32,000 nucleotides of DNA from Candidatus Saccharimonadota bacterium (GTDB taxonomy: Archaea; Nanohalarchaeota; Nanosalinia; Nanosalinales; Nanosalinaceae), in the NCBI RefSeq assembly GCF_029232205.1, contig NZ_CP107255.1, positions 720,001 to 752,000 of the forward strand, in the 5' to 3' direction. The translations under genes and the position numbers were made by a program. The notes beneath the pieces were generated by a model. The model ran no database searches. It was not told the origin of the DNA and was given only the letters and a program-made list of their open reading frames with translations. How positions within the stretch are numbered: the stretch's first letter is position 1; every line of letters begins with the position of its first letter. This document shows, one piece after another, positions 9,738 to 30,622 of the stretch.

Positions 9738-9822
9738 GGAGTTTGTAGGAATGTTGGTGGTGTTAACTGTTAAATATGGTTGGCCGTCGGTTTATTTAAC
9801 TGATCTGGCCCCTTTTCTTGGT

Positions 9823-10221: not shown

Positions 10222-10299
10222 AGCTCTGATACCAGCGCATTAGTTTTTCTAACATCCCGATACGTCATTTTTAAATAGTTTCACCGATGAGTAGTAGTT

Positions 10300-10557: not shown

Positions 10558-10588
10558 TTTGAATCTTCAAGGCCTTTAGTTTGTTGTA

Positions 10589-11865: not shown

Positions 11866-11909
11866 GTAATTTAGTATTCAAGTAGTTTTAAGTTTTCCAG
11901 CGGAACTTT

Positions 11910-12389: not shown

Positions 12390-12442
12390 GTTTACCGTTG
12401 GCCCGGCAAAGCTTTTATTTCAGGACTGTAAAGTCTCTCTTT

Positions 12443-12805: not shown

Positions 12806-13157
12806 TAACGTTAAAGATTCCGTAAAAGATGAGAAAAAGAAGGCTAAAAGCTCCAGCAGCGGTGGTGGAGGCGGAGGTTCAGGTAACTTCTCCACTCTAC
12901 GTGAGGAGGCCGAGAAAAATGCTGATAAACAGGAAAATGATGATACACCGATTGAGGTTCTAGAGGAAGGGGGTCTGAGCCAGAACTCAAGTAGTTCAGG
13001 TTCCAGCAGTTCCTCCAATCCTATGACTTCGCAGGCCTCTCAGAGTTCTGATAGTTCTTCAGGTTCTGTTGATGCTTCAGGCCTTGAGAAGAAGTTGGAT
13101 AAGATTATTGAGCAGAATGATAGGATGATTGAGATTCTTGAGAGCTTCGGTAACTAG
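12792..13157 (+). CDS. Ser/Gly-rich disordered protein with conserved C-terminal helix (paralog 2)
   Basis: Overlaps the previous gene by 14 nt. The C-terminal motif LDKIIEQNDRMIEILESF parallels paralog 1. Confidence 0.55.
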   Translation: MSYYDNVKDSVKDEKKKAKSSSSGGGGGGSGNFSTLREEAEKNADKQENDDTPIEVLEEGGLSQNSSSSGSSSSSNPMTSQASQSSDSSSGSVDASGLEKKLDKIIEQNDRMIEILESFGN

Positions 13158-13621
13158 AGCTCTTTAATCATTCTTTCTCTCCTGGTTTCAAACCCTTCAT
13201 TTCTGTAAAGTTCTTTAGCTGAATTATTGGCCGTGTCCACTTCCAGCTCCACGCTTTCAAATCCTCTTTCACGGGCCTCTTCCTCTATCCTGTCCAGTAG
13301 CTGTGTTGCGTAGCCTTTTCTTCGGTAGTCAGGTTTGATGTAGATATCGTTTATTTTCAGGTAGTCGCCTCTTGAGAAAATAGGTGCTGGACTGTCTTCT
13401 GTTGCTGTGATAAGGCCTATAAGTTCATCTTCGTGCTCGGCGACGAGTGTTGGATCATTGCTTTCTATCTTGTCCTCTCGCCACTCCACAAGATCATCTT
13501 TGTCCAAGTTGTCTGATAGCTCGTTGATCTCTGCTGTCTCTTCCATTTCGCGGGCTAGAGGTAGCCAGAGCTCTTCAACTATCTGCTTTGCTTCTGATGC
13601 TTTGGCAGGCCTTATTTTCAT
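13154..13621 (-). CDS. GNAT-family N-acetyltransferase
   Basis: Acetyl-CoA motif A is IYIKPDYRRKGYATQLLDRIEEEARERGFESVELEV, followed by NNSAKELYRNEGFE. Confidence 0.9.
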   Translation of the reverse strand: MKIRPAKASEAKQIVEELWLPLAREMEETAEINELSDNLDKDDLVEWREDKIESNDPTLVAEHEDELIGLITATEDSPAPIFSRGDYLKINDIYIKPDYRRKGYATQLLDRIEEEARERGFESVELEVDTANNSAKELYRNEGFETRRERMIKEL

Positions 13622-13902
13622 TATACAATTTCCACGGAGATTTTCTTTCTGCCGCTGGAGTCTTTGGATACTGCTCTTTCTTCTCTGAGGACGAACTCTA
13701 TTTCAAGTTCTCTGTATTCGTCTTCCTCTTCGAACTCCATGGTCAGCAGGTTGTCCTGGTTAGGTTCAATACGTACTTCTTCCTTTCCGCGGAAGCTAAG
13801 GCCTACTTCTCCATCTCTTATTTTATCTGCAAAGCTTTCCAGAAAATTTGCAAGTTCATCGTTTGAAAATTCAAAGTCGAGGTCAAGTTCCCTGCTGGCC
13901 AT
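13621..13902 (-). CDS. amphi-Trp-domain-like small acidic protein, translationally coupled to the GNAT gene
   Basis: 93 aa. The pattern LDLDFEFSNDELANFLESFADKIRDGEVGLSF..RIEP.. then ELEIEF recalls the amphi-Trp family. Its stop overlaps the GNAT start (TAATG). Confidence 0.5.
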   Translation of the reverse strand: MASRELDLDFEFSNDELANFLESFADKIRDGEVGLSFRGKEEVRIEPNQDNLLTMEFEEEDEYRELEIEFVLREERAVSKDSSGRKKISVEIV

Positions 13903-13951
13903 AGAAAAAATAGAATGGTTAAGAGTTTTATTTGTAACTGAAGAGTGTCAA

Positions 13952-14224
13952 TCAATCTTCGCTCATCAGTCGCTTTGAAAGGTAGTGCTCCTTGTCTTCT
14001 AGCTCTCTGATTGCTTCGATACCGAAGAAGTATGCCACCATGATCATCAGGAATCCTAGGTATGCTGGCATTAGATCAGCTGAGTACCTCATCGGGTAGA
14101 GCACTGAAAACAGTAGCAGTGATCCAAGGATGAATAGCGTGAAAGAGATTCCTACTTCAGCATTCAGAGTTAGCTTCGGGAGGCCGAAAACATCTTTCTC
14201 CCGTACCTTATTTTCTTCGCTCAT
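13952..14224 (-). CDS. small membrane protein (two TM helices)
   Basis: Hydrophobic segments are VGISFTLFILGSLLLFSVLY and AYLGFLMIMVAYFFGI. Confidence 0.5.
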   Translation of the reverse strand: MSEENKVREKDVFGLPKLTLNAEVGISFTLFILGSLLLFSVLYPMRYSADLMPAYLGFLMIMVAYFFGIEAIRELEDKEHYLSKRLMSED

Positions 14225-14279
14225 AAAATTATTGCACCTTAAAGATCATTTTCGAAGGCCTTGATTTAAAGCTTTTCAG

Positions 14280-14663
14280 CTATAGATCCTGAACGTCAAC
14301 GTTTCTTTCTCTGCGGTTGAAAGCCGACGGCAGGTGAATATGATAGGTTCCTTCACGTTTCTCGATAACAAGCGGCACCTCTTCCAGAAGACGGGATACA
14401 TTGATGTTGTAGACGCCTTCTTCCTCGACTTTTATTGATTCAAGGTCGAACTCGATGCTGATGTTGCCTCTCTCCTTTTCACCGGCAGCAACCATCTCCT
14501 CAATATCAGACTTAACAAGCTCTTTCTCCTCCTCAAGCTCATCCTCAGAAGTATCTACCTCGTTCTCATACATGAAAAGAGATGAACCACATTCACATCC
14601 GGAAATGAGCTCTTCAGAATCCTCATCATAAGTCTTACCGCAGTTCATACATCTGTGAGGCAT
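14280..14663 (-). CDS. Zn-ribbon protein (DUF2072/OapC-like) of the archaeal GTPase triad
   Basis: N-terminal CMNCG..(x13)..CECG ribbon. It is the third gene after a small GTPase and a DUF2073-like gene. SD GGAGG lies 9 nt upstream of the ATG. Confidence 0.65.
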   Translation of the reverse strand: MPHRCMNCGKTYDEDSEELISGCECGSSLFMYENEVDTSEDELEEEKELVKSDIEEMVAAGEKERGNISIEFDLESIKVEEEGVYNINVSRLLEEVPLVIEKREGTYHIHLPSAFNRRERNVDVQDL

Positions 14664-14777
14664 TCAAAACTCGCCTCCGTGAGTTTTTGCAAGTCCGAAA
14701 CCTTTCAGGTTTCTAGGCTGCAAAAGGCCAAGAAGGCCTTTGATTCCAGAAACTCGGAGAGTTTCGACCATCTTAAA
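14664..14777 (-). promoter_or_regulatory. 114-nt structured spacer with four consecutive stem-loops
   Basis: Plus-strand stems are 14666-14672/14681-14687, 14697-14702/14708-14713, 14723-14729/14735-14741 and 14749-14755/14759-14765. Stems are 6-7 bp, and three begin with GAAAC on the RNA strand. Confidence 0.5.
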
Positions 14778-15167
14778 TCACTCCTTTTCGCTCTCAAGTT
14801 TTGCAAGGAATGAAACTGCATCCCTTTCTTCCTTGATTTTCTCCATTACGCGAGAGTTACCTACGATTGTAAGGCCTCTGCGAGGTTTCTCATCGAATAG
14901 TTTGTCGTATACGAGGTTGCGGGCCTTGTCCAGTCTTGTCTGTCCTGAGTCGAGGCCCATGAACTCTATGCCAGGGAAGTCGTCGTCGACCTGTTCCATG
15001 GCGTTTGTGATTAGTGTGCGTTTTTCGTCAGGAGTCCATCCTTCCTCAAGAACCAGTACTGCGTCATCCTTGACTTTCTGAAGTACGAGCTCCAGCTTGT
15101 CGTCCAACTGATGATCAGACAGCTTGTCTCTTGAGAGAAATTCTATGGTAACTCCATCGTCGCTCAT
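14778..15167 (-). CDS. DUF2073/OapB-like protein of the archaeal GTPase triad
   Basis: 129-aa acidic protein. Its start overlaps the GTPase stop (TAATG). The family name is from memory of the conserved archaeal gene order, not from a search. Confidence 0.6.
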   Translation of the reverse strand: MSDDGVTIEFLSRDKLSDHQLDDKLELVLQKVKDDAVLVLEEGWTPDEKRTLITNAMEQVDDDFPGIEFMGLDSGQTRLDKARNLVYDKLFDEKPRRGLTIVGNSRVMEKIKEERDAVSFLAKLESEKE

Positions 15168-17090: not shown

Positions 17091-17753
17091 ATGGCAGTCG
17101 ATCGCGATAGCACAGAGGAAGACATATTCTTTGACATAAAAGGAATATTCCCAGAAGCAGTGGATGAATTTCAGGAACAGATGCCGGAAATGAGCGAAGG
17201 AGACTACATGATCGGAGGCCGAATGAGAGAAGACATGAAACCCTTCGTGTACTCAGGCCTTGTATCAGAATTCCCTGTCAACGGAGAAACAGTATTTATA
17301 GTGACAGAAAGAGGAGAACAGGTCCTGGAAGGATACGAAGATCCAGAAGAAGTCACAGCACAGAAACCAACAGTCGACAGAGAAGAGGCCTATGAAGTAT
17401 TCAATGCAGACACCGAAGACTTCGCACAGGCCATCATCTCAGAAGAACTGCTGACACAGTACCGCAGAAAAAAGGAGCAACAAGTACAGAGCGCTGAAGG
17501 AGAGAGCTGGGAGAACTACCTGGACTTCGGGACAGAAATGCTGAACAACTGGGAACAGGTGTTCCACCGAGCAAATAACTCAGAGGATAGAGAACTACAG
17601 CAGTACGCAGAAGAAGTAGGATACAGACTTGACGAACTAACAGAAGGCCTTGTAAACCTTGCAGACGAGAAAGAAGGCCAGCACATCGAATCAGTGAGAG
17701 ACAGCATCTACGAGCTAGAAGGCCTGACAGAACAGTTCAACCACGAAATGTAA
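17091..17753 (+). CDS. hypothetical acidic protein
   Basis: 220-aa ORF. Its stop codon lies inside the promoter box of the next gene. Confidence 0.55.
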   Translation: MAVDRDSTEEDIFFDIKGIFPEAVDEFQEQMPEMSEGDYMIGGRMREDMKPFVYSGLVSEFPVNGETVFIVTERGEQVLEGYEDPEEVTAQKPTVDREEAYEVFNADTEDFAQAIISEELLTQYRRKKEQQVQSAEGESWENYLDFGTEMLNNWEQVFHRANNSEDRELQQYAEEVGYRLDELTEGLVNLADEKEGQHIESVRDSIYELEGLTEQFNHEM

Positions 17754-17757
17754 AAAC
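17745..17757 (+). promoter_or_regulatory. BRE/TATA-like box GAAATGTAAAAAC, 24 nt upstream of the LamG-1 ATG
   Basis: The same 13-mer (one A/G difference) recurs at the same distance upstream of all three LamG paralogs. Confidence 0.5.
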
Positions 17758-17781
17758 TGTTGAAACCAAAAATTCTGTAAC

Positions 17782-20532
17782 ATGCCGATCCCAGGCCTTA
17801 TTTCTAGCAAAAGAACTACCGCAGCAATTCTACTGATAGGCCTTGCCACAGCGATAGCTCTCACACCTGTAAGCTCAATGACAGGAAATGTATTCCAATC
17901 AGCAACACTAGATACAAACAGCACGAGCCAGGCCGCAACCACCAGCGAAGCAACAACATCAAACACAAACTCACTGAACAACGGGTTAACGGCCTACTAC
18001 CGTTTCGACGATGTCAAGGCCTCAAGAGGATATAGTTTACAGTTTGATGGCAGTGATGATTATGTTGAGACGAGAGGTCCTGAGGAACTCTACAATTACT
18101 CAATATCCATCTGGTTTAAAGCAGATAACAGAGGCGGAGAAAGGCCTGTCTTCCAGGACTCTTATGGCGCTCCCGCAGGATACAGCCACGGTTATCCCAC
18201 GATAGGCATGGATCCCTCAGCAATCTACTTTACAGGAGGCTATAACGGTTCAACGTACGATAAGGCAGAGTTAACGAGCGCAGTTTCAGGTAAGTGGTAC
18301 CATGGAGTGCTCGTTAGCAACGGACAAAACTCTAATTTTGAAGCATACGTAAACGGACAAAAAATTGGAGAGACACACTGGGTTTCCGGATCACAGCTGA
18401 ATATAACCAACAGCACAATAGGAGCAAGGCCCGAGAAAGCAAAAAACAACCCGGATCAAACCCATCATTTTGACGGAAAAATCGACCAACTACAAATCTA
18501 TGACAGATCACTCAAAGACTTTGAAGTCAAAAAACTCTACAGAGAAGAACCACTAGCAAAAGGGCTGCTATCCGAGTATCCTCTAAACTCAGGGCCTGAA
18601 AACTGCGACCTGACACAAGAGAATAACTGTATAGAGAATTCTCTAGACTCAGCTTACGATGCAAGGCCCGTCAACTTCAACGACAATAATCTAGATACAG
18701 GCAGCGGATGGACAGATGAAACTCCTGTCAACAGGCCTTCTGCCGAGGACTCCTCAGTTTTCAACTCACTAGGCACAGGGTTTGGTGGGGCAGAAGGAAA
18801 TCTTAACAATTTTGATTTCTCCTCCTCAAGCGGTTGGAGCAGCGGACACATAGGAGAGCACTCTCTCAAATTTGACGGCAGCGATGACTTTGTCAGTGTG
18901 CCCTACAGAAAAACCTTTAACTTCAGCGGAGACTCATGGAGCCTAAGCCTTTGGTTCAAAGCTTCAGGAGATCCTGATGCAGAAGTACTGCTTGCTCAGG
19001 GAGATGGCGCCGAGTTCAATGACGGGTGGACTCTTAGAGATAGCTGGGACTCAACCGGGCCTCTAATGTTCCGATCTGGAGGCAACACATTATCAGCCTC
19101 TGGGGTGTGGGACAATGACTGGCATCATGCCGCAGTTTCCATAGAACCAGAGGGAGAATCACACCTATACGTGGACGGACAGCTTAGAGACAGTGGTGCT
19201 ACCTCAAACTTCGGACCATTCAACTCAACAGAATCATTCTTAATAGGCGATAAAGGGAATGGAGAAATATTAAACGGATCAATAGATGATGTGAGAATAT
19301 ACCACACCGCGCTCACACCCTCACAAGTAGACAAAATCTACAGAAAGCAACCAATTACTGAAAACCTATCAAATCGCTGGAACTTCGAATCAGGAAACCT
19401 CAAAACAGCATATGATACAGGAGACACCACCAACCAAGGAGTTCTGAATACGAACTCTGTAGCAACATACGGTGGTTTAAACTTCATAAGCTCAAAAACC
19501 TCTCAGCAAATATCCTCACTCTCTTTCTGGGCCTCGGAAGACGGAAAATGGAGGCACTATGTTGAAACGAATGGAACTCGATTTATTGACGGTAGGGAAG
19601 AGTCCTGGGGCCATCCTTTAGTCACTAACAGTTCTTATGGTACGAATATTGGTTCTCCTTTCTACGAGTCGGGGATTGTAGAAAATGTCTCTAACTGGAC
19701 TTATGTAGGCCTTGACGGCGAGTTCGATGATCCTGTAGTAATTGTTAATGGCCAGGGAAGCTTTGATGCAGGTGATGAGCCAAGAGAGTCCAGAGCACTT
19801 GTCAGAAATATCGGGCCCGAAGGATTCGAGGTTCAGAATGTTAACGAAAATGATTCGCTGGTGGAAGAAGATATCGGGTATATTGTTATGGAGAAAGGCC
19901 ACCATACTATCGATGGAGTGGAGGTAGAGGCCGGTACATACAATACCTCTGGATCAACCAGTTCCTACAACTGGAATCAATCATTTGGATCCAATTCTAT
20001 AAACATGATTGACACACTGCAGGAGGAAACATCTCACGCGTACAGCTCAAGAGTTGACACAAGTTCCTTGGATTCACAGGGATTCTCGATTTACTGGGAA
20101 TCATTCGACCAGAGTCAGGGGGCAGATCAGGACGGAGGAGGCTTTCAGGCAGGTTACATAGCCTATAGAACCGATCAGTCAAACACCAGGTTTGAAGGCG
20201 ACATATACCCGAACTGTCCAGAAGACACAGACACAGGTGGCTGGTGCCAGGTAAACTTCTCCACAGAATTTAGCGAGACACCGATCATGTTCGCTAACCC
20301 TCTCGGAACAAGCGGAGGAGACCCTTCTGTAGGAAGCTTCTCAGACCTAACCACCGAGGGCGTCAAAATAAGAATTACAGAAGGAGATGTATACGACGGA
20401 GAACAGGGCCACGTCAACGTAGACCTGCCATGGACAGTATGGACAGACAGCTTCGAAGGCAGAATCGACGAGTTCAGGGCCTACAACAGAAGCCTTACGG
20501 ACAGCGAAACAACCAGACTTGGCCTCAAATAG
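17782..20532 (+). CDS. secreted/anchored multi-LamG (concanavalin A-like lectin) protein, paralog 1
   Basis: N-terminal hydrophobic segment AAILLIGLATAIAL, then an S/T-rich linker. LamG-type units run LQFDGSDDYV..SIWFK..WYHG..FDGKIDQLQIYDRSL and LKFDGSDDFV..SLWFK..WHHAA..LNGSIDDVRIYHTAL. A third unit closes with FEGRIDEFRAYNRSLTDSE. Confidence 0.85.
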   Translation: MPIPGLISSKRTTAAILLIGLATAIALTPVSSMTGNVFQSATLDTNSTSQAATTSEATTSNTNSLNNGLTAYYRFDDVKASRGYSLQFDGSDDYVETRGPEELYNYSISIWFKADNRGGERPVFQDSYGAPAGYSHGYPTIGMDPSAIYFTGGYNGSTYDKAELTSAVSGKWYHGVLVSNGQNSNFEAYVNGQKIGETHWVSGSQLNITNSTIGARPEKAKNNPDQTHHFDGKIDQLQIYDRSLKDFEVKKLYREEPLAKGLLSEYPLNSGPENCDLTQENNCIENSLDSAYDARPVNFNDNNLDTGSGWTDETPVNRPSAEDSSVFNSLGTGFGGAEGNLNNFDFSSSSGWSSGHIGEHSLKFDGSDDFVSVPYRKTFNFSGDSWSLSLWFKASGDPDAEVLLAQGDGAEFNDGWTLRDSWDSTGPLMFRSGGNTLSASGVWDNDWHHAAVSIEPEGESHLYVDGQLRDSGATSNFGPFNSTESFLIGDKGNGEILNGSIDDVRIYHTALTPSQVDKIYRKQPITENLSNRWNFESGNLKTAYDTGDTTNQGVLNTNSVATYGGLNFISSKTSQQISSLSFWASEDGKWRHYVETNGTRFIDGREESWGHPLVTNSSYGTNIGSPFYESGIVENVSNWTYVGLDGEFDDPVVIVNGQGSFDAGDEPRESRALVRNIGPEGFEVQNVNENDSLVEEDIGYIVMEKGHHTIDGVEVEAGTYNTSGSTSSYNWNQSFGSNSINMIDTLQEETSHAYSSRVDTSSLDSQGFSIYWESFDQSQGADQDGGGFQAGYIAYRTDQSNTRFEGDIYPNCPEDTDTGGWCQVNFSTEFSETPIMFANPLGTSGGDPSVGSFSDLTTEGVKIRITEGDVYDGEQGHVNVDLPWTVWTDSFEGRIDEFRAYNRSLTDSETTRLGLK

Positions 20533-20545
20533 GTTGAAAACCGGG

Positions 20546-20558
20546 GAAATGTAAAGAC
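20546..20558 (+). promoter_or_regulatory. BRE/TATA-like box GAAATGTAAAGAC, 24 nt upstream of the LamG-2 ATG
   Basis: See 17745-17757. Spacing to the start codon is identical. Confidence 0.5.
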
Positions 20559-20582
20559 ACAGACACAAATAAAATATACAGA

Positions 20583-23500
20583 ATGAAAACAGGCCTAAAA
20601 AATAACAGAAAAACTGCAGTAATCGCGGCACTAGGCCTTATAACTGCAATAACAGTTTTCTCAGGATCCGGCCTCACCGGAGAACTCTCGTCATCAACTT
20701 TGATCAATGATGGAGAACAGCCAAGGACAGCAACCACATCCGACACATCCACAAGCACAAGCACTCTTAACGATGGCCTGAAAGCATACTACCGTTTCGA
20801 CAACGTCAAGGCCTCAAGAGGATATAGCATTGAATTGGATGGATCGGATGATTATTTACAAATACCTAGTTCCGATAGTCTCAATACAACTGGCGCCATT
20901 ACAGTTTCTGGATGGGCTAAATTCGATACCACAGGGCAATCATCAGGATTGTTTGGCAGAGGAATCTACACGGGATCATGCAAAGGCCTAAACCCTTACT
21001 TCATAAGGTTGAATGAATCTGGAAGCCAGCTCGTGTGGAGTCTGGGAAAGGATACCAGTTGCGGTAACTTTGGTAGTAGGGTTACAGACAGCTTCAGCTA
21101 CGAAACAGGAAAATGGTATCACATAGCCGGCGTCTGGAACGGCTCCACAGCACCAAACAGCCAGAGACTTTACGTGGACGGCACAAAAGTAGCCCAAGGA
21201 TCTCCAGGTTTCTCCAATCTTTATAAAGATAATACTTATAACGTTATCGGTTACGGCGAACAGCACCTGGACGGAGAAGTAGACAACGTCAGAGTATATG
21301 AAAGAGCGCTATCCTCCAAAGAAATAAACAATCTATACAAAGGCCTTCCTGTCTCTAGAAACAACCTAATCCTCTACCAGCGATTCAACGAAGGTCCTAA
21401 CAACTGCGACCTTACCACTTTCTTGAACTGCCTCGAAGATGAATCTACGAACAAAAACAATGCAGAGGGCCGCGGCATCGAAGACAATAATCTGGATACA
21501 GGTTCAGGATGGACAAAAGAAACACCCGTAAACAGGCCTTCTGCAGAAGATACTGGAAGACAAAATACCATCTTCTTTGAAGGAGGCGACAACGAAGTCT
21601 TCTTTGAAGGCGGGAATAACGGAGAATTGATGGACTTTGACTTCAACGCAAGCAGCGGATGGACTGCAGATAGCAAGGTTGGAGAGAAGGCTCTGAAGCT
21701 AGATGGTGTTGATGATATAGTCAGAGTTAGAGATAATCCTGACCTGGATTTCAATCAGGAAATTACTGCTTCGGTCTGGTTCAAACCTCTTGAGGGAGGT
21801 AATGGCAGCACTGATAGATCTCTCAATCTCATCTCCAAAAGATGGGGTGGAGGCGGATACACCGATATTAAATTTGAGCTGGGATACAATTCCGCCAACC
21901 AGATTACATGGACTCTGGGAGTTAACGATGAAGTAGAACTTCTTGAAATGACTTCTTCAGAAACCGTGACTCCTGAAACAGGATGGCACCACGCGGCCGG
22001 AACATACAACACCAACACGAACACAGCCAGAATATTTATCGACGGCTCCATGGTGAAAGAAATATCCTACACCGCAGACAATATTACCAGCATAAGCACT
22101 GACGACATGTATATCGGAGGTGGCGACATTTTCAACGATAGATACTACCTTAATGGCAGCATTGATGATGCAAGGCTCTACAGCACCTCTCTTTCACCTT
22201 CAGAAATACAAGAACTATACAATGGAGAACCTGTCAACGATGGCCTTGTAGGAAGATGGAACTTTGAATCAGGAGATGGGGAGACGGCCTATGATACATA
22301 CTACAAGAGCTCTGGAGTCCTGGGAGGATCTTCCATTGATTCAGGGCCTGAAACCTATGGTAGCGGCGGCCAGGTTTCTATGAACGAATCTACTGTTTCT
22401 GCATGGTACAGCAAAGGCGATCTACCTGAGAAAGTAAGTTCTACAGGCCGAAGATATGCTACTTTCTGTCTTCTAGACACCAGCGATGATCAAGGTCTTT
22501 TCAGCATTGGTTCTACACGTGACGGCAACTTTATCCAGATACAGAATCTTTCAACTTCTGGCGACGTAGTTCATACGCGGAATAATACTTTGAACAGAGG
22601 AGAGCTCTGGAGGTTCCCTTGCGATGATTACGGGCCTGACTCCGCTTTCAGGATTAACGCTGAGTATCCTGTATCTGTTGACTATGATTCTATGCTGGAT
22701 GCGAGGACCAGTGACGATGACTGGACTTCGCGGGCCGGAGAAGATATCTGGTTCTCCATGCCTAACGACAACAACGAAATGAGCATCACTGCTTACCGAA
22801 ATAATACCGAGGTAACACTGTACAACAGGAAGGATGAAACTTCTCAGAGCTTTACACTAGATAAGGACGAGTTCTGGACTTGTTCTGACTGCACGAACAG
22901 TCCAACGCTGTTCAACATCAAGACAAACGAAAATCACCCTGTAACAGTTCTTTACGGAAAGTTTGACGACAATTCAGGCTCTGAAATAGTGGCCCCAACC
23001 AGAAAGCTGTACAGAGTCTCGAAGGACTACGCCGAAAACGGCCAGAAAATACACATAGCTGCGGAGAAAGACAACACAGATGTAGATATCACAGATTACG
23101 CAGGAAACTGCACTACAACATCCACTACACTAAACGCAGGAGAAGTCTACTCCGACTCCTGCGGTCAGGGAACAATCAATCTCAAAGTAAACTCTTCCAA
23201 ACCTGTCTCCCTAACCTTAATCGAGGCCGGCGGCGACTACGGCCCAAGCATGTATCGCTCATCAACCAACAACTGGGGAATCGGAAAAGAATACAGCATC
23301 ACCTCAAGCAACGACCAGGGTAACAGCATCAGCCTTATCTCGCTGGCAGACAACAACCAGATCGATATCTCCGGATCCTTCAGCTACTCCGCGGAACTGG
23401 ACAAATACGAGAACCGATACGGTGTAGGAAACCTTCCTGTAAACGAATACCTCAAAATAGAGGCCGAACACCCGGTAGCAGTTGTAGGTGACGCAGGAAG

Positions 23501-23846
23501 CAACTACGAGGCCGCAATGGCCGTACTACCGCTACCTAAAATGAATATTGTAGAGGCCGGAGAATCAGGCATCGGAGTCAGCAAGGATAGAACCTTCGGA
23601 TTCAGCAGCGGCAATATTATCTCAACTGAAGGCCTTCGAACAGACCAATGGCAGAACCTTGTCATGACAGGAGGATCGAGCACCTCTCTATACATTGACG
23701 GCCGCAAAGCCCTGAACACAGATATCTCCTCCAGCGCTGAGAAAGGAAAAATCCGGATTGGAAGAGCTCCCGGAAAAATTGACGAAGTCCGTGTGTACGA
23801 CAGAAGTCTTTCAGACAGCGAAGTCCAAGATCTTCTTTTCCAGTAG
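20583..23846 (+). CDS. secreted/anchored multi-LamG protein, paralog 2, with a large insert in the third LamG unit
   Basis: Hydrophobic N-terminus AVIAALGLITAITVF. LamG closing motifs are LDGEVDNVRVYERALSSKE, LNGSIDDARLYSTSLSPSE and PGKIDEVRVYDRSLSDSE. The central ~500 aa contains repeated ..PV.V.. beta-type modules. Confidence 0.85.
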   Translation: MKTGLKNNRKTAVIAALGLITAITVFSGSGLTGELSSSTLINDGEQPRTATTSDTSTSTSTLNDGLKAYYRFDNVKASRGYSIELDGSDDYLQIPSSDSLNTTGAITVSGWAKFDTTGQSSGLFGRGIYTGSCKGLNPYFIRLNESGSQLVWSLGKDTSCGNFGSRVTDSFSYETGKWYHIAGVWNGSTAPNSQRLYVDGTKVAQGSPGFSNLYKDNTYNVIGYGEQHLDGEVDNVRVYERALSSKEINNLYKGLPVSRNNLILYQRFNEGPNNCDLTTFLNCLEDESTNKNNAEGRGIEDNNLDTGSGWTKETPVNRPSAEDTGRQNTIFFEGGDNEVFFEGGNNGELMDFDFNASSGWTADSKVGEKALKLDGVDDIVRVRDNPDLDFNQEITASVWFKPLEGGNGSTDRSLNLISKRWGGGGYTDIKFELGYNSANQITWTLGVNDEVELLEMTSSETVTPETGWHHAAGTYNTNTNTARIFIDGSMVKEISYTADNITSISTDDMYIGGGDIFNDRYYLNGSIDDARLYSTSLSPSEIQELYNGEPVNDGLVGRWNFESGDGETAYDTYYKSSGVLGGSSIDSGPETYGSGGQVSMNESTVSAWYSKGDLPEKVSSTGRRYATFCLLDTSDDQGLFSIGSTRDGNFIQIQNLSTSGDVVHTRNNTLNRGELWRFPCDDYGPDSAFRINAEYPVSVDYDSMLDARTSDDDWTSRAGEDIWFSMPNDNNEMSITAYRNNTEVTLYNRKDETSQSFTLDKDEFWTCSDCTNSPTLFNIKTNENHPVTVLYGKFDDNSGSEIVAPTRKLYRVSKDYAENGQKIHIAAEKDNTDVDITDYAGNCTTTSTTLNAGEVYSDSCGQGTINLKVNSSKPVSLTLIEAGGDYGPSMYRSSTNNWGIGKEYSITSSNDQGNSISLISLADNNQIDISGSFSYSAELDKYENRYGVGNLPVNEYLKIEAEHPVAVVGDAGSNYEAAMAVLPLPKMNIVEAGESGIGVSKDRTFGFSSGNIISTEGLRTDQWQNLVMTGGSSTSLYIDGRKALNTDISSSAEKGKIRIGRAPGKIDEVRVYDRSLSDSEVQDLLFQ

Positions 23847-23942
23847 GATTCAGCTCAAACAGAAGACAGGGAAACCATATAAGCAAAACTTATACCGGCA
23901 ATTACTAGCTTATATACTTTCAGCTATATAGCGTAGTAAGTT

Positions 23943-24701
23943 ATGCCATTCAAAAGCGACGGCGTAGAAGTAATTGCAGTCGACGACCAGGAAGACATCC
24001 TGGAGCTGACAAAACTATTTCTTGAACGTTTTGAGGAAGATCTCGAAGTAGAGACAACCACAGATCCTGAAAAAGTACTGGAAGACGTAGAGGAAGGCCT
24101 TTACGACGCGGTGCTCTCCGACTACGACATGCCTCGAATCACAGGCCTCGATCTTCTGGAAGAAGTCAGAGAGATCGATGAGGACCTGCCTTTCATTCTG
24201 TACACGGGAAAAGGCTCTGAGGAGATAGCGGCCGACGCGGTAAACCACGGCGTAACCGACTACTTCAGGAAAGAGGCCGGATCAGACCACTACCAGATGA
24301 TTGCCAAAAGCCTCACAGATGCAGTAGACAAGTACAGAAACGCAAAGGAAAGAGAAGTGTTCGAGGCCATAGTCGACAACTCGGAAAACCCTATTCTCAT
24401 CACAGATCCAGAATCCGAGATACTCTACGTAAACCCGGCACTGCTGGAGGTAACAGGATATGATTCAGAAGAACTTCTGGGAGAAAACCTCTCCAAGATC
24501 ACACCTGGCGAAAGCTACGCTGCACTCTACGAGGCCTCAGAAGACGCAAAAGTACTTGAAGCACAGGACGTACGAGGACTGAAGAAAAACGGCGACTCAT
24601 ACAGCCAGGACCAGCAAATCATCCCGATAAAAGGAAAAGATGGATGGCCTGAATTCTACGCATCAATATCAGACCTACTAGAACCCTCAGAAACAGAATA
24701 A
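23943..24701 (+). CDS. response regulator: receiver (REC) domain plus PAS domain, no DNA-binding output
   Basis: REC residues are VDDQ, the phospho-acceptor context LSDYDMPRITG, LYTGKG and DYFRK. The PAS-like part is FEAIVDNSENPILITDPESEILYVNPALLEVTGYDSEELLG. Confidence 0.85.
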   Translation: MPFKSDGVEVIAVDDQEDILELTKLFLERFEEDLEVETTTDPEKVLEDVEEGLYDAVLSDYDMPRITGLDLLEEVREIDEDLPFILYTGKGSEEIAADAVNHGVTDYFRKEAGSDHYQMIAKSLTDAVDKYRNAKEREVFEAIVDNSENPILITDPESEILYVNPALLEVTGYDSEELLGENLSKITPGESYAALYEASEDAKVLEAQDVRGLKKNGDSYSQDQQIIPIKGKDGWPEFYASISDLLEPSETE

Positions 24702-24707
24702 AGACAC

Positions 24708-24720
24708 GAAATGTAAAAAC
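24708..24720 (+). promoter_or_regulatory. BRE/TATA-like box GAAATGTAAAAAC, 23 nt upstream of the LamG-3 ATG
   Basis: The 16-mer CACGAAATGTAAAAAC is identical to the one at 17742-17757. Confidence 0.5.
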
Positions 24721-24743
24721 AAAGAAAGCGAAAACCCAACTGT

Positions 24744-27008
24744 ATGGAGCTAAAAGGCCTGAAAAATTCTACAACAATAATTACAGCCCTACTTCTTACC
24801 GCAGGCCTCACCATAGCTCTAACAAGTTCAACCAGCCCTGCAGGATCAATACTTGAAGGTGAAGAACCAAAATCGCTGGCAGACACCGAAAACATAGAAA
24901 TACAGTCATCAACCAGCTCAGGCCTTCAGAAAGGACTCCAGGCCTACTACCGTTTTGACAACGTACAGGCCTCCAAGGGATACAGCCTGGAATTCGATGG
25001 AACAGATGATTATCTCAGCATTGATGACAGCTCGAGCGTGGATAATACTTTTGGTAGCACGTTCAACTTCACACTGACTGCCTGGGTAAAGATGAATGAA
25101 TGGGAGGACTGGAGAGGAATCCAGAACAAGGCAGGATGCGGGAACTGGAGCTGTACTACCGCCGGAATGTGGACTTATGGAGACGGAATAGTGGGAGTGA
25201 TCGGAATCGATGAAAGTGGAAACCCTCCGAATTCGTATGTAAGAGCTATTCACAAGCCCGGCCTGGGAGAATGGCATCATGCAGCAGCTGTAGGAAATGG
25301 AAGCCACGTCAAACTGTATATTGACGGAGATCTGAAAGACTCCGAGAAAATAACAGATAGCATCAAATCAAATCTCACAACTAACAATCACCCTTTGGTT
25401 GTAGGCCGTAGATGCGCTGGCTGCACTGAGTCAATAAACGGCTCTATAGCAAAAATCCAGGCCTTCAACAGAACTCTAAGCAGTTCGGAAATCTCCAATC
25501 TTTACAATTCGCTTCCTGTATCCGAGAAAGGGAAGGTTCTGTCAGTAGATCTGAATGATGGGCCTAGAAACTGCGATTTAACATCTTCAACTCATTGTCT
25601 TCTCGATAAATACTTCTACTCCAACGATGCAGAGGCTGTAAGCTTCAATGACAACAGTTTGGATACAGAATCCGGCTGGGAAAAGGAAACACCTATCAAC
25701 AGGCCATGGGGAAAAGATTACAGCGTTAATAACAACAAGGCCCGTTTCTTCGGCGGAAACCACGGATCTCTAAATGGATTCGAACTTGGAAACTCAAGCA
25801 CCTGGAAAAAAGGCGTAATAGATAGCGGTTCAGTTGGGCTTGATGGAAATGACAGCTACATTTCTATACCTGATGGAAACAGTCTTCAGCCCACGGATGA
25901 GATATCAGTAGGAATATGGGTTAAACAGAAAGGCGAAAACAACAATTCTGACGGCAACTCACAGATGCTTGTAGAGAAATACTTCTGGGGTTCTTGGGGC
26001 CTTCTACAGTGGGGAGGCGTAGGGAACACAGTTACCTGGCACGTAGAGTTCCAGGACGGGAATGATACAGAAGTTTCCACAACAACACCTCTAACTGCAG
26101 ATGGAGAATGGCACTACCTAATGGGAACGTACGATGGAAAACAGCTCAAAATCTATTTTGACGGAGAACTTGAGGACTCAACCAGTTACCCTGATAGACA
26201 GATAAGTACATCCGGAGGCAACATCTGGATAGGCCGTCACGGCAACAGCCCCCACCACTTCTGGTTCAATGGCTCTACAGACGATCTCCGAATATACAAC
26301 AAGGCCCTGAAAGAAGAGGAAGTCAAAGAGTTAAGCCAGAAGAAAAACGTAGAGAAAAATCTGGTTGGAAGATGGAACTTTGAGGAAGGGGAAGGAACAG
26401 AGGCCTATGACACCTCAAGATTTGAGAGAGGTGGAACCTTCAGCTCGGAAACTGTAAAGACCGGTAACTCAGACGATTACCTAAGGCTTAGATACGGGCC
26501 TGATAGATGGAACTTCGACAGCATCACCGTGTCGGCCTGGATATACCCTGACACTCTTCCAGCCTCCTCAGGATCTCATAGCGACGGCGCACACATCGCT
26601 GGCAGAGTCGGAGGAGTATCCGGACAGGCCGACACCTCAAATACAGATGACAACTGGAGAATTGCAGTAGGCAACTCCAAAATCGGTTTCTACACCGACT
26701 CAGAACAGAACTACGACCACAACATGTACACGCCAAAAATACTGAAAGAAGACAAATGGCAGCATATCACAGCAACCTACAACGCCACAACCTCCAGAAA
26801 GAAACTTTTTGTCAACGGAAAACTACAGACAGAAACAGTAGTATCAAGCAGTCCTCCAGACCCTCTCCACACCAACACCAACCCAGTCAGCATCTTCGGA
26901 ACCCGAAGCTGGGACAGCGACCAGGTATTCAATGGAATGATCGACGAACTAAGAATCTACAATCGTACACTCAGCGAAGACGAAGTAAAGAAACTGGCGC
27001 TAGACTGA
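24744..27008 (+). CDS. secreted/anchored multi-LamG protein, paralog 3 (three uninterrupted LamG units)
   Basis: Hydrophobic N-terminus TIITALLLTAGLTIAL. LamG closing motifs are INGSIAKIQAFNRTLSSSE, FNGSTDDLRIYNKALKEEE and FNGMIDELRIYNRTLSEDE. Confidence 0.85.
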   Translation: MELKGLKNSTTIITALLLTAGLTIALTSSTSPAGSILEGEEPKSLADTENIEIQSSTSSGLQKGLQAYYRFDNVQASKGYSLEFDGTDDYLSIDDSSSVDNTFGSTFNFTLTAWVKMNEWEDWRGIQNKAGCGNWSCTTAGMWTYGDGIVGVIGIDESGNPPNSYVRAIHKPGLGEWHHAAAVGNGSHVKLYIDGDLKDSEKITDSIKSNLTTNNHPLVVGRRCAGCTESINGSIAKIQAFNRTLSSSEISNLYNSLPVSEKGKVLSVDLNDGPRNCDLTSSTHCLLDKYFYSNDAEAVSFNDNSLDTESGWEKETPINRPWGKDYSVNNNKARFFGGNHGSLNGFELGNSSTWKKGVIDSGSVGLDGNDSYISIPDGNSLQPTDEISVGIWVKQKGENNNSDGNSQMLVEKYFWGSWGLLQWGGVGNTVTWHVEFQDGNDTEVSTTTPLTADGEWHYLMGTYDGKQLKIYFDGELEDSTSYPDRQISTSGGNIWIGRHGNSPHHFWFNGSTDDLRIYNKALKEEEVKELSQKKNVEKNLVGRWNFEEGEGTEAYDTSRFERGGTFSSETVKTGNSDDYLRLRYGPDRWNFDSITVSAWIYPDTLPASSGSHSDGAHIAGRVGGVSGQADTSNTDDNWRIAVGNSKIGFYTDSEQNYDHNMYTPKILKEDKWQHITATYNATTSRKKLFVNGKLQTETVVSSSPPDPLHTNTNPVSIFGTRSWDSDQVFNGMIDELRIYNRTLSEDEVKKLALD

Positions 27009-27049
27009 AAATCTATCTGAAATAATTACGAAACTTCTCGTCAACATGG

Positions 27050-27580
27050 CTATAGGTAGTCAGCATTTCTTATTTTTTCCAGAAAGTTCCTATACATCTG
27101 AACGTCCTCTTTATCTAGTTTTTTCAAGGCATCAAAGCGTTCATGGCTCTTTCCAGCTCCAACAGGATCTATAATCTTAATCCCTTCTTCCGGACTATAG
27201 AGTATATTGCCTTCCAGATCACCGTGTACTAGGCCATTTTCATGAAAAGTCTCTAAAGCACTCTCAACTTCATCAATAAGCTCTTCGCCCGCACCGTTCT
27301 CCAAGATATAGTCTCTAAGAGTTGTTCCCTCTATTCTTTCCAAGTAGAAGCCTTCCATTTCTCCAGATTCTCCGTAAATAGCCATCAAAGGCTCCGCAAC
27401 ATTTTCCGGCTCAAGTTCGTACATACTCTCCATATCATTAAACTCTCCTTGAATCTCCGGAAACCTTTCAGCAGCTCTAACCGGAATAGTTCTACCATTT
27501 AGGCCATCATCCTTGAAGTACTCCTCCGCCAGATCAAGCCAATAGAAATGATCTGCAGAAAGATTATCAAGCGAAGACAT
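27050..27580 (-). CDS. small protein-kinase-like (RIO/Bud32/Kdo-type) domain protein
   Basis: Catalytic-loop-like HENGLVHGDLEGNIL, a metal-binding-like IKIIDPVG, and a hinge-like FYLERIEGTTLRDY. No obvious Gly-rich loop. Only 176 aa. Confidence 0.5.
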   Translation of the reverse strand: MSSLDNLSADHFYWLDLAEEYFKDDGLNGRTIPVRAAERFPEIQGEFNDMESMYELEPENVAEPLMAIYGESGEMEGFYLERIEGTTLRDYILENGAGEELIDEVESALETFHENGLVHGDLEGNILYSPEEGIKIIDPVGAGKSHERFDALKKLDKEDVQMYRNFLEKIRNADYL

Positions 27581-27692
27581 AGATCATAAGAGACAAGACA
27601 ATTTTTTCAACCCAACCGCTAACAGACAATCACAATATCCAAGAAAAAAACTTAGTCATTGAACTGAGACAGAAAAGTCGAGCGGACCGGCC

Positions 27693-27718
27693 CTCCAACA
27701 ATCTCCAAGTTGCTCACT
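27693..27718. repeat. direct repeat copy A: CTCCAACAATCTCCAAGTTGCTCACT
   Basis: 23/26 identical to 28599-28624, with a further CTCTCCA match after a 4-nt indel. Immediately preceded by GGACCGGCCC (27684-27693), which equals the tRNA-Ile 3' end. Confidence 0.6.
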
Positions 27719-27743
27719 GCCTCTCCAAAATTGGATAATTCAC

Positions 27744-28526
27744 TTACTTTTTAACAAATATACCCTGACTATTTTTCTCGTATTTGCAGGATTTGGCGAA
27801 ATTTTTCTTACCCAAACCGAGAATTATAGGAGGGAATATCTTGCTAGGATAAGAATATTGAAGTTTAAAGCTTGCTTTCTTTTCGGAACTATTTTCTATA
27901 AACGCATTAAAGTCTATATTAAAAGGTTCAGTGGGAGGAAGAACAATACTTCCTTCTTTACTCCCTTCCGACATTTGAATATCCATATTTCTCGATTCTA
28001 TATTCCAAGACAATTCACCAGGAGAGGCTCCTTCATTTCTAAACCTTGTAAAAACCCTGTTTTCATTATCAGCTAGATCTGGACATTGATTTGTTCCTTG
28101 AACAGTGTAAATATGAGGCGCTCCAGAATACCAAGCAGCCGAGGTGCTTACAATATTAGCTGTGAATAGAAGGATAGTTGCTACGGCGAGTATGAATGTA
28201 TACCTTGAAAGTTTTTTTGAGAACCCTGTTGATTTTCTTTCTAAATTCCTCCTCTCCTGTTTCCTCTGTTCCTTTTTGAGGAATTCAATGCCTTTAGTTG
28301 TTATCTTCCATGTTGTTTTCGGATCTATAGGATCTCCATATTCATTAATACCCTTTGATGTGTCAATACTCTTTACTATCTTTCCTGATTCCGCTAAATA
28401 TGTCTCAATAGTCTCAATTTCCTTATCATTTAGATTAAATTCAACTCGTATCTGAGCCTTCAGAACGTACTTAGGATACCCCTCCTGCAACTTTGCTAAT
28501 ATTTCCTCGACAATTTCGAAGTCCAT
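27744..28526 (-). CDS. hypothetical membrane-anchored protein (wHTH-like N-terminus, one TM, beta-rich C-terminus)
   Basis: ATG 28526 (MDFEIVEEILAKL) is preferred to the TTG start at 28607. TM segment is YTFILAVATILLFTANIVS. AT-rich and Lys-rich, unlike the native genes. Confidence 0.5.
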   Translation of the reverse strand: MDFEIVEEILAKLQEGYPKYVLKAQIRVEFNLNDKEIETIETYLAESGKIVKSIDTSKGINEYGDPIDPKTTWKITTKGIEFLKKEQRKQERRNLERKSTGFSKKLSRYTFILAVATILLFTANIVSTSAAWYSGAPHIYTVQGTNQCPDLADNENRVFTRFRNEGASPGELSWNIESRNMDIQMSEGSKEGSIVLPPTEPFNIDFNAFIENSSEKKASFKLQYSYPSKIFPPIILGLGKKNFAKSCKYEKNSQGIFVKK

Positions 28527-28598
28527 CAATCTATATAGATATAAAAACGGAAGAATTAACTTTCTTTCCAAATTAATTCCGGGGTCACTGGAGGGAGT

Positions 28599-28624
28599 CT
28601 CCAACAATCTCCGAGTTACTTACT
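28599..28624. repeat. direct repeat copy B: CTCCAACAATCTCCGAGTTACTTACT
   Basis: See copy A. The two copies bracket the 27744-28526 gene. Confidence 0.6.
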
Positions 28625-28727
28625 CTCCAGAACGTCTTTTAGTTGTCAAATTCTTAAGTTTTTTAGTGTTGAAATTAAAGTACATTCTCTATTATAAGCC
28701 GTTTTAATTAACTCTTTTCTAGATTTT

Positions 28728-29465
28728 CTAACCGTCGATAAACTCTGGCGTCTTACCTAGGTCTTCAATCTCTTTCTTAATTCCCCCAGTTTCTTCTTCT
28801 ATATACTCCTTGACATCCGTTCCTTCGAACGCATTTTCTAGTTTCTGAATAGTTCCATAACCCAACCAGATTAAATGAACAACCTGGTTAAGCTCTTTAT
28901 CTTCGTCAGGCGTTCTATCAGACATAGAAGCGCCAAGCCTTACAGGGTGTGAAGCATAATTGCTTGAAAGATTATAGAAATCGCCATAGCGCTTGTTCTT
29001 CTTTTTCATTTCACCTTTCTTATTTCCTCTTATTTTGTGAAGTTTATCTACAATACTTAATTCCTCTTTCATTCTATCTTCTGTTGATAAGCCTTCTTCG
29101 TTTAGTTCCTTGACTTCTTGTTTCCATTCCTTCATCATATCTTTAGACTCCGCTCTATCTTCATTTAAACCTTCTAAAACCAAATAAGATTCGTATAAGT
29201 ATCTAAGAGTTCTCTTAAATGACTTGTAATTACAATACTTTGTGTTGATATATCCTTCTTCTAGATTAATCACAGAACTTGTATAGTGTAAGAAGATGTG
29301 CTTGTGATGGTCGTTGAATTCTTCTGGAAACTCTTGCTGGACTTTTTGAAGTTCTTGCATTTGGTTAAGAAGTCTCAGTAATATCGAAACAGGTTTCTTG
29401 TTTTTACCTTCAAGCCCTTCGTTCTGATTTGAAAGAATTCTTTTCTCTATATCTCCTGCGTCCAT
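28728..29465 (-). CDS. hypothetical Lys-rich protein
   Basis: 245-aa ORF in the AT-rich islet. No family recognised with confidence. Confidence 0.5.
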   Translation of the reverse strand: MDAGDIEKRILSNQNEGLEGKNKKPVSILLRLLNQMQELQKVQQEFPEEFNDHHKHIFLHYTSSVINLEEGYINTKYCNYKSFKRTLRYLYESYLVLEGLNEDRAESKDMMKEWKQEVKELNEEGLSTEDRMKEELSIVDKLHKIRGNKKGEMKKKNKRYGDFYNLSSNYASHPVRLGASMSDRTPDEDKELNQVVHLIWLGYGTIQKLENAFEGTDVKEYIEEETGGIKKEIEDLGKTPEFIDG

Positions 29466-29785
29466 ATCAGATATTTTCGTGCCAAACCTGTTATGATTTT
29501 CTCAAGTCGGAAATAAGCGTCGGTTTTTCAGCGTTCTTAGATATCTCTCTTAGTCCTCTATAAAATCTTTTTTCCTTAGGTGTATTTACGGAAGAATTCG
29601 TCTAGAACTTATTTGTTGTGTTCTGATAGTTCTGGATTTTTGAATAGTTTTTCGTGCGTCTGCTTTAGACTGTCAAACACCATTCTTGTGTTTTCTCCTT
29701 TAGTTGCCGCCGTTGAGCTAATATTAGGGTTTGGCGGAGAAGCAGTTCAAAAGATCTTTTGTTAAGATATGAACTCGGAGAAAGA

Positions 29786-29860
29786 TGGACCGGCCCAGAT
29801 TTGAACTGGGGATCTCCACGTTATCAGCGTGGCGCTATAACCTGGCTAAGCTACCGGTCC
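29786..29860 (-). tRNA. tRNA-Ile(GAU): tRNA-Ile, anticodon GAU
   Basis: Hand-folded: acceptor GGACCGG/CCGGTCC, anticodon arm CCACG-CTGATAA-CGTGG, T arm CCCAG-TTCAAAT-CTGGG. 75 nt, no encoded CCA. Confidence 0.9.
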
Positions 29861-29955
29861 TTTTTGACCTTGTGTAGTAGTGTTGACGGGTAAGTATTTT
29901 TAATGCAACGCTAGTAGCCAACTATTTTTATTCAAGTCGAACAGAGTATTTATTT

Positions 29956-30429
29956 GTGGGCCTAAAGCAGGAGTACGGCGAGAAAGTTGAAGAAGTTGAG
30001 GAGTCAGTTCACTTGATTACTTCGAAGAAGTCAGCGTCACGTGTGAAGACTGTGCTGGATTCTTTTCTGCCGCTTGTACTGATTCTGCTTTCGTTTGTAA
30101 TACTTTTCCAGTTCTTTAATTTCGGGCCTGCAGCGGATACGTATATCAGTTATCTTAACTATGTGGTTATTCTTTTCTTTGCTGCCAGGCTGGGTATAGG
30201 CCTGCGGCTTGCGCAGTCGAATACGAAGTTTGTTGAGGATCACTGGCTTGACATGTTGATGGTGATTCCTGCTCTCAGTATCTTGGAGGAGCTTGAGGTA
30301 GGTGCAATCTTCGAGCAGCAGATGGTGGGAGAGAAGGCTACGGCAGGAATAGCGATGGCCCGTAATCTAGGCCTGTCTGCCAAGATGACCAAGATAATCA
30401 GACTGGTTAAGAGAACTGTTACTTTCTGA
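29956..30429 (+). CDS. four-TM membrane protein with voltage-sensor-like features (GTG start)
   Basis: Hydrophobic helices are FLPLVLILLSFVILFQFF, YVVILFFAARLGIGL and WLDMLMVIPALSIL. A final basic helix is KMTKIIRLVKRTV. TATA-like CTATTTTTAT lies about 25-30 nt upstream. Confidence 0.45.
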   Translation: MGLKQEYGEKVEEVEESVHLITSKKSASRVKTVLDSFLPLVLILLSFVILFQFFNFGPAADTYISYLNYVVILFFAARLGIGLRLAQSNTKFVEDHWLDMLMVIPALSILEELEVGAIFEQQMVGEKATAGIAMARNLGLSAKMTKIIRLVKRTVTF

Positions 30430-30501
30430 ATAAGGGCCTTTTGGAACAGGTAAACTGTGGCTGAAGAGTTTGCTGTGTTAGAATAATTTTTTGAGAGGTT
30501 A

Positions 30502-30575
30502 TGGGCTCGACGGGATTTGAACCCGCGACTACCGGCTTAAAAGGCCGGTGCTCTGCCAGACTGAGCTACGAGCCC
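30502..30575 (-). tRNA. tRNA-Lys(UUU): tRNA-Lys, anticodon UUU
   Basis: Hand-folded: acceptor GGGCTCG/CGAGCCC, D arm GCTC/GAGC, anticodon arm CCGGC-CTTTTAA-GCCGG, T arm GCGGG-TTCAAAT-CCCGT. 74 nt, no encoded CCA. Confidence 0.9.
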
Positions 30576-30622
30576 CTCCTTGTAGAAAATAAATGAGAGG
30601 ATATGTTTTAAGTAAAAATCCC

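Follow-up and report, generated by a model that had tools for sequence, protein, structure and literature searches.

A cluster of LamG-domain protein genes in Candidatus Nanohalovita haloferacivicina BNXNv: old paralogs, a split third domain and a neighbouring REC-PAS gene

The window analysed here is a stretch of 32,000 nucleotides (nt), positions 720,001–752,000 of the forward strand of NZ_CP107255.1 (assembly GCF_029232205.1), and its source is the published genome of Candidatus Nanohalovita haloferacivicina BNXNv. Our subject is a group of four genes in this window, which exact sequence look-up identifies as BNXNv entries WEL23663.1 to WEL23666.1. Three of them (P1, P2 and P3) are annotated in the database as LamG domain-containing proteins (WEL23663, WEL23664 and WEL23666), and the one that lies between P2 and P3 is annotated as a response regulator (WEL23665) and is termed the REC-PAS gene below. 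All four are on the same strand, with intergenic gaps of 50, 96 and 42 nt (P1–P2, P2–REC-PAS and REC-PAS–P3). An earlier sequence-only reading of this DNA had described three same-strand genes of 916, 1087 and 754 amino acids (aa) with one blueprint, and this is borne out by the open reading frames (ORFs), Pfam matches and motifs; their combined length, given there as 8.7 kb of the window, measures 8.3 kb. In window coordinates the genes are:

17782–20532, plus strand: P1, 916 aa, WEL23663.1; putative signal or anchor, Ser/Thr linker, LamG1, Cys connector, LamG2 and split LamG3 with a putative triple H-type-lectin-like insert
20583–23846, plus strand: P2, 1087 aa, WEL23664.1; P1-like plan, LamG3 split at aa 653/1007
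23943–24701, plus strand: REC-PAS gene, 252 aa, WEL23665.1; between P2 and P3
24744–27008, plus strand: P3, 754 aa, WEL23666.1; minimal form with three intact LamG_3 domains and the connector

All three LamG proteins match Pfam Laminin_G_3 (PF13385, gathering threshold 27.6 bits), P1 with 147.2, P2 with 203.5 and P3 with 231.8 bits, in two, three and three stretches respectively. Their Pfam matches at E ≤ 0.01 are Laminin_G_1/2/3, Pentaxin, Toxin_R_bind_N, IgGFc_binding and the N-terminal sialidase domain PF02973, whose cut-off is exceeded in P1 and P3; no glycoside hydrolase catalytic family is among them. In P3 the LamG_3 domains occupy aa 80–253, 351–531 and 538–754, with the connector at aa 259–325. 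The AlphaFold2 model of this protein (mean pLDDT 79.8, pTM 0.67) contains three beta-sandwich domains, and a Foldseek search of PDB with it gave 476 matches at E ≤ 0.001, the best being to neurexin LNS (3qcw, E 3.5e-17), laminin LG (5xau, E 1.7e-15) and clostridial toxin receptor-binding domains. The LamG fold that the sequence-only reading had proposed is thus recovered by Pfam in all three proteins, and P3 is modelled with the LamG/LNS jelly roll. This jelly-roll fold is common to P3, the LNS domains of neurexin 1-alpha, LG1–5 of laminin alpha and the Hc-N domain of clostridial neurotoxins, and the best matches to the model (3qcw, 5xau, 1dyk and 6hox, E 3.5e-17 to 1e-12) are all receptor-binding domain arrays. 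Sequence identity to these matches is 9–14%, and whole-chain TM-scores are low (0.17–0.22) because the domain arrangement differs; unlike the eukaryotic LNS/LG and clostridial toxin proteins, P3 has no EGF spacers and no toxin domains.

To follow the third domain through the family, a LamG3 model was built from the intact third domains of P3, of P0001 (WEL23625.1, a fourth family member elsewhere in the BNXNv genome, 40% identical to P3) and of a protein from a related contig, L014. In P2, model positions 2–114 align at residues 553–653 and positions 118–201 at residues 1007–1087; in P1, positions 2–49 align at residues 527–574 and positions 175–200 at residues 890–915. LamG3 is therefore interrupted by an insert of 315–353 aa in P1 and P2 and intact in P3, and the LamG3 domains of relatives are similarly split, mostly between model positions ~66 and ~120. 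The count of three LamG units per protein made earlier stands insofar as Laminin_G_3 is found in all, but the third unit is non-contiguous in P1 and P2. The inserts are:

19612–20418, plus strand: inserted module of P1, aa 611–879; three putative H-type-lectin-like repeats nested in LamG3
22542–23600, plus strand: insert of P2, aa 654–1006; IgGFc_binding-like (PF17517) module at aa 810–969

Three homologues of the P1 insert were found, and two of them match Pfam H_lectin (P0121 with 33.2 bits and P0123 with 24.8 bits). A profile of the insert matched 7176 representative proteins and outlines a module of ~260 aa with three repeats. H_lectin (PF09458) was matched by seven of eight sampled relatives of this module, with E values of 1e-6 to 1e-18, and a module profile built without the window sequences hits P1 at residues 611–879 with 105.8 bits and three repeats. 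The insert profile gave nothing significant when compared with PDB sequences. By transitive homology only, the P1 insert would be a triple H-type-lectin-like module, belonging to the three-repeat module of the H-type lectins and in P1 nested inside a LamG domain. The P1-type triple module was also seen in a 496-aa ENA metagenome protein (P0122), fused to a thioredoxin/DsbA-like domain behind a hit to a signal of the twin-arginine translocation (Tat) type; it is unusual for a lectin module to be joined to a disulfide oxidoreductase.

For P2 the assignment of the insert is direct, with IgGFc_binding (PF17517) scoring 43.2 bits in the full protein and 48.6 bits in the insert alone (cut-off 25.6), and a metagenomic look-alike of P2 (P0007) has the same IgGFc_binding insert. 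Inserts of other relatives match Gly_rich_2 (P0003), COLFI (P0005) and FG-GAP (a 986-aa protein of contig L001). A tentative proposal, which may well prove wrong, is that LamG3 serves as a conserved scaffold for display and has a favoured site of insertion, into which unrelated binding modules (triple H-type lectin, IgGFc_binding-like, Gly_rich_2, COLFI/fibrinogen-like and FG-GAP) have repeatedly been swapped. If true, each symbiont would have a cassette-like repertoire of heads on a constant LamG1–connector–LamG2 stalk, and this repertoire would set the host surfaces to which it can attach. Of the present description, only the split LamG3 with its interchangeable nested modules was not found described elsewhere; it is a modest, incremental detail.

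Between LamG1 and LamG2 each of the three proteins carries a connector of the form NCDLT...C...ETPxNRP, placed in P1 as follows:

18553–18756, plus strand: P1 connector, aa 258–325, with NCDLT...C and ETPVNRP and two family-invariant cysteines

That a conserved Cys-containing connector separates units 1 and 2 had been noticed before, and the family alignment strengthens the observation: C277, C285, T316, P317, N319 and P321 are the same in all 10 members. No region of the family is better conserved than the connector (51% mean identity, versus 28–34% for the LamG domains), which is modelled by AlphaFold2 with pLDDT ~75–89 and, when searched alone, has no Pfam match at E ≤ 10. The motifs YYRFD, NCDLT, ETPxNRP and RWNFE each occur once in each of P1, P2 and P3. 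Alignment with the best database relatives identifies the GL.AYYRFD and GRWNFESG..AYDTS blocks as the usual leader strand of LamG_3 and G.IDE.RIYNRSLS..E as its usual closing strand, and the same consensus is found in unrelated LamG_3 proteins. The near-identical blocks previously taken as a shared blueprint are accordingly present in all three proteins but are mostly ordinary first and last strands of LamG_3, only the connector being family-specific; the closing motif previously ascribed to each unit (G.ID[DE].R.Y.R.LS) is degenerate in the first (GKIDQLQIY in P1 and GSIAKIQAF in P3). All three proteins fit a subfamily defined by a signal or anchor, LamG1, a two-Cys connector with TPxNxP, LamG2 and an RWNFE-led LamG3 ending in G.IDE.R.YNR.L.

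Tandem LamG_3 domains with the same leader strand (GL.gyW.Fd) and closing motif (G.IDevRiYnRaLs..Ei) occur in Laminin_G_3 multi-domain proteins of bacteria from the candidate phyla radiation (CPR) and of other DPANN archaea, with homologues at 22–29% identity in Moraniibacteriota, Doudnabacteria, Pacebacteria, Aenigmarchaeota and Altiarchaeales. Those proteins differ in lacking the NCDLT...C/ETPxNRP connector, and many are giants of 3000–7700 aa. The connector was seen only in the window proteins and in a few metagenome contigs of hypersaline type; a family-pattern scan of genome contigs returned weak bacterial LamG matches only and no nanohaloarchaeal locus, and the exact P3 and P0001 sequences had no match in the contig index. 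Elsewhere, members of the LamG family occur singly, with housekeeping genes around them, or in arrays of five, and no partner gene is constant. One such array, on JGI metagenome contig Ga0535675_0002050 (L001, positions 1–15063), has five adjacent multi-LamG genes in divergent orientation and is larger than that of the window; one of its genes has the FG-GAP insert in LamG3 and another has five LamG units. In L014 the single triple-LamG gene adjoins two Cdc6/Orc1-type genes.

The age of the paralogs had been misjudged. The local DNA identities quoted in the sequence-only reading are about right (48/60, or 80%, for one block and 54/66, or 82%, for a second that includes a 39/41 run), but the recent duplication or gene conversion drawn from them is not supported by the sequences as a whole. 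Protein identity among P1, P2 and P3 is 31–32% overall, at the DNA level only three or four blocks of 29–111 nt are similar, at 64–82% (BLASTN and a repeat finder), and codon identity at columns of equal amino acid is 0.43–0.46, which we read as synonymous sites that have been largely randomised. Judged by these comparisons, the three genes are old paralogs rather than recent copies, kept similar by selection on motifs. The 39/41 run lies between P1 17995–18035 and P2 20787–20827 and contains 12 consecutive identical codons (YYRFD-VKASRGY); it is the sole, mild outlier (P = 0.012, permutation) and may reflect micro gene conversion or chance.

The N-terminal hydrophobic signal or anchor and the Ser/Thr-rich linker reported earlier were found again in all three proteins: each has a single hydrophobic segment at residues ~9–30 (KD19 1.7–1.96 at residues 9–16, with K/R ahead), followed by a Ser/Thr-rich stretch, and no further hydrophobic segment. 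At the C-terminus each protein finishes with the LamG closing motif and has no hydrophobic anchor. Cysteine counts are even (4, 10 and 6 in P1, P2 and P3), and Asp plus Glu make up 14% of the LamG proteins versus 25% of their cytoplasmic neighbours. From these features we infer that P1, P2 and P3 are Sec-exported by a putative signal peptide or signal anchor. None of the three has a Tat twin-arginine motif, a lipobox or N-terminal cysteine, or a PGF-CTERM motif, and none matches an S-layer or PGF-CTERM model of NCBIfam or Pfam. BNXNv relies on Sec, its Tat system being described as likely inactive (PMC10266531).

Three further classes were considered and rejected. A conserved N-terminal G-L prompted a comparison with type IV pilin-like (class III) signals, but the Gly is followed by charged residues, and a [KR]G-hydrophobic junction is absent. 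The only NCBIfam model that P1–P3 match is that of TafC (NF052521), a subunit of the haloarchaeal Tat-fimbriae that carries a LamG domain at its C-terminus and was modelled at the end of the filament with this domain pointing outward (PMC11821415). Only the LamG part aligns (profile positions 186–362 of 373), with 52.7, 92.0 and 87.3 bits against a cut-off of 410, and P1–P3, unlike TafC, have neither a TafA-like donor-strand domain nor a twin-arginine signal, so that they were not taken as fimbrial subunits or Tat substrates. SPEARE proteins, said to have been defined by Hamm and colleagues in 2019 as giant proteins with serine protease, adhesion and restriction endonuclease domains, were set aside since P1–P3 are only 754–1087 aa long and have no protease or endonuclease domain in Pfam.

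The LamG cluster is real, and both its class and its genome had been published before. The genome paper (Reva et al. 2023, PMC10266531) puts the number of PKD/LamG genes in BNXNv at 14 or more, which make up 6.15% of the genome, and predicts for them a part in host recognition and fixation; in the sister strain SVXNc it describes five proteins that have several LamG domains each, up to five, and three of whose genes lie in one operon with adhesin-like genes. The earlier statement that no system with this organisation was described thus does not hold. Its suggestion of a surface or glycan-recognition role, itself a prediction, agrees with the literature: La Cono et al. 2020 (PMC7443923) is among the papers that propose a surface or attachment role for LamG proteins, and signal-peptide LamG proteins are listed as Sec-exported candidates for cell–cell interaction in PMC9563170. 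The LamG/PKD surface proteins of cultivated nanohaloarchaea (PMC10266531, PMC7443923) include the very genes of the window, in the same organism; the sections of those papers drawn on here treat the genes in aggregate and do not describe the two-Cys connector plan, the split LamG3 with nested modules or the shared upstream box.

We consider it probable that, in the Haloferax ectosymbiont BNXNv, P1, P2 and P3 are old paralogs from one nanohaloarchaeal family of surface proteins with a lectin fold, exported by Sec, and that the REC-PAS gene is a bystander. The proteins would leave the cell through Sec and be held at the surface by the N-terminal helix, or be released after cleavage. Beyond a Ser/Thr-rich stalk, probably glycosylated, LamG1, the connector and LamG2 would form a rigid constant body, the two connector cysteines probably making a disulfide, and LamG3 would present a variable head, H-type-lectin-like in P1, IgGFc_binding-like in P2 and intact in P3. 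Projecting from the symbiont surface, the proteins may bind glycans or glycoproteins, whether in the host envelope or in the surrounding matrix of polysaccharide, and the paralogs would offer different binding heads. Each gene would be transcribed from its own A/T box as a leaderless archaeal transcript.

Several observations weigh against this reading. The direct H_lectin score of P1 is sub-threshold (E 0.028, 15 bits against a gathering threshold of 24), and in the full-length AlphaFold2 model of P1 pLDDT is below 50 over residues 588–890. A signal peptide, if cleaved, could leave the proteins released rather than surface-bound. N-glycosylation sequons are not enriched in the three proteins (18, 13 and 14 observed versus 12.8, 16.7 and 10.6 expected). 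Read-through co-transcription of the LamG genes with the REC-PAS gene is possible because no oligo-T terminators separate the genes. Finally, the attachment role of nanohaloarchaeal LamG proteins is a prediction in the cited papers too.

Three other accounts are less well supported than binding to host or matrix. The proteins might act like carbohydrate-binding modules (CBMs), capturing free poly- or oligosaccharides (xylan, glucans or host exopolysaccharide) and feeding sugar uptake rather than attaching the symbiont. Both the ConA-like/LamG and the H-type lectin folds bind sugars, and BNXNv, brought into culture from a xylan-degrading consortium, depends on sugars that others release (PMC10266531). 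We nevertheless regard this account as unlikely: in the contexts examined, family members have no linked gene for a glycoside hydrolase, a transporter or sugar metabolism, the closest structural matches are modules that bind protein or glycoconjugate receptors and not CBMs, and FG-GAP, COLFI and IgGFc_binding inserts are typical of adhesins.

The sequence-only reading had joined the three LamG genes and the REC-PAS gene into one regulated surface-interaction system, in which the PAS domain senses a signal and the regulator controls LamG expression or activity. The gene is indeed present between paralogs 2 and 3, at 23943–24701, and its 252-aa product matches Pfam Response_reg (76.1 bits) and PAS_9 (44.9 bits). 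The canonical receiver residues D14, D15, D60, T88 and K110 are all located, and this, the close spacing of the four genes on one strand without terminator-like T-runs, and an identical 10-mer upstream of the three LamG genes that could be a common regulatory site all speak for such a system. The upstream elements are:

17745–17757, plus strand: promoter-like box GAAATGTAAAAAC upstream of P1, with TGTAAAAA at −33 to −26 from the ATG
20546–20558, plus strand: promoter-like box GAAATGTAAAGAC upstream of P2, containing the shared 10-mer
24708–24720, plus strand: promoter-like box GAAATGTAAAAAC upstream of P3, containing the shared 10-mer
23910–23917, plus strand: TATA-like TTATATAC of the REC-PAS gene at −33 to −26, read from the intergenic sequence

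The exact 10-mer GAAATGTAAA has only three occurrences in the window, each 36–37 nt before a LamG start codon, so that TGTAAA(A/G)A falls at −33 to −26 of the LamG genes. These GAAATGTAAA boxes are identical although the LamG coding sequences have diverged to ~31% identity. An A/T-rich box at the same distance also precedes most other genes of the window. An A/T box so placed has the geometry of an archaeal TATA box with leaderless transcripts, and by sequence each of the four genes probably has its own putative promoter. A scan for sigma-70 promoters and intrinsic terminators, which is not applicable to archaea, gave results below shuffle expectation. The P1 box overlaps the stop codon of an upstream 220-aa ORF (17091–17753, plus strand) that adjoins P1; its product is very acidic (D+E 26%) and without a hydrophobic segment, and it has no Pfam match and was not detected in the compared related loci by tblastn.

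Other results speak against a dedicated regulator. Pfam finds no DNA-binding or other output domain in the REC-PAS protein, the gene has its own, different TATA-like box, and in none of the window ORFs scanned with Pfam was a histidine kinase domain detected. Relatives of equal length and 40–71% identity are common in hypersaline metagenomes, and orthologues (49–63% identity) on three nanohaloarchaeal contigs (L077, L079 and L081) lie among genes for a ribosomal protein, MsrA, a GTPase, His-tRNA synthetase and other housekeeping functions, with no LamG gene in the fetched flanks (up to 10 kb) and no synteny with the window neighbours. Conversely, no regulator stands beside LamG family members in the four contexts L001, L014, L082 and L083. 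Of the regulator claim, therefore, the presence of the gene stands and its membership of a system with the LamG genes does not, the adjacency not being conserved in related contigs; for this reason it was rejected as the principal interpretation, and we now hold a regulated system to be improbable. The REC-PAS gene is widely conserved in nanohaloarchaea and probably not a dedicated regulator of the LamG genes, its adjacency is best read as coincidence, and it should not be assumed to control them.

Equally little chance is given to the idea that the proteins are structural or self-associating components of the symbiont's own envelope (S-layer-associated or biofilm) without partner recognition: they appear exported with a Ser/Thr-rich stalk, and LamG is also found on TafC, whose authors suggest adhesive potential and a possible biofilm role (PMC11821415), but no S-layer or PGF-CTERM model of NCBIfam was matched, the TafC model was matched only over its LamG part at 52–92 bits versus 410, and copy number, placement and inserted modules vary between related genomes and paralogs, which fits a variable interaction surface better than a scaffold.

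LamG-rich surface proteins are standing candidates for the means by which DPANN symbionts recognise and hold their hosts. The present cluster is no new kind of system. Its value lies in three compact, related proteins of a symbiont–host pair that is in culture, one minimal (P3) and two with distinct nested lectin-like heads, which are convenient for binding and blocking experiments.

Further features of the window lie outside the cluster. Positions 1–9737 form a low-G+C block (0.36–0.38, versus 0.43–0.48 in the core) that contains a type III restriction-modification pair, with the methylase at 2990–4798 and a ResIII helicase with endonuclease domain at 4807–7461. A tyrosine integrase gene (8318–9604, minus strand) adjoins a tRNA-Thr gene (9662–9737, minus strand), and the block looks like an element integrated at tRNA-Thr. 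At 14280–14663 (minus strand) lies a gene for a homologue of the origin-associated protein OapC (Pfam, 73 bits), which suggests that a replication origin region is situated a few kb upstream of the LamG cluster. Convergent with P3, at 27050–27580 (minus strand), is a gene for a 176-aa RIO/Kdo-like mini protein kinase with sub-threshold Pkinase and RIO1 scores; on contig L077 a RIO1-family gene, not detectably similar to the window kinase by tblastn, lies ~4 kb from the REC-PAS orthologue. A second low-G+C stretch (0.37–0.39) at 27000–30600 holds ORFs without Pfam matches and then genes for tRNA-Ile (29786–29860) and tRNA-Lys (30502–30575). The G+C content of the LamG cluster itself is core-like.

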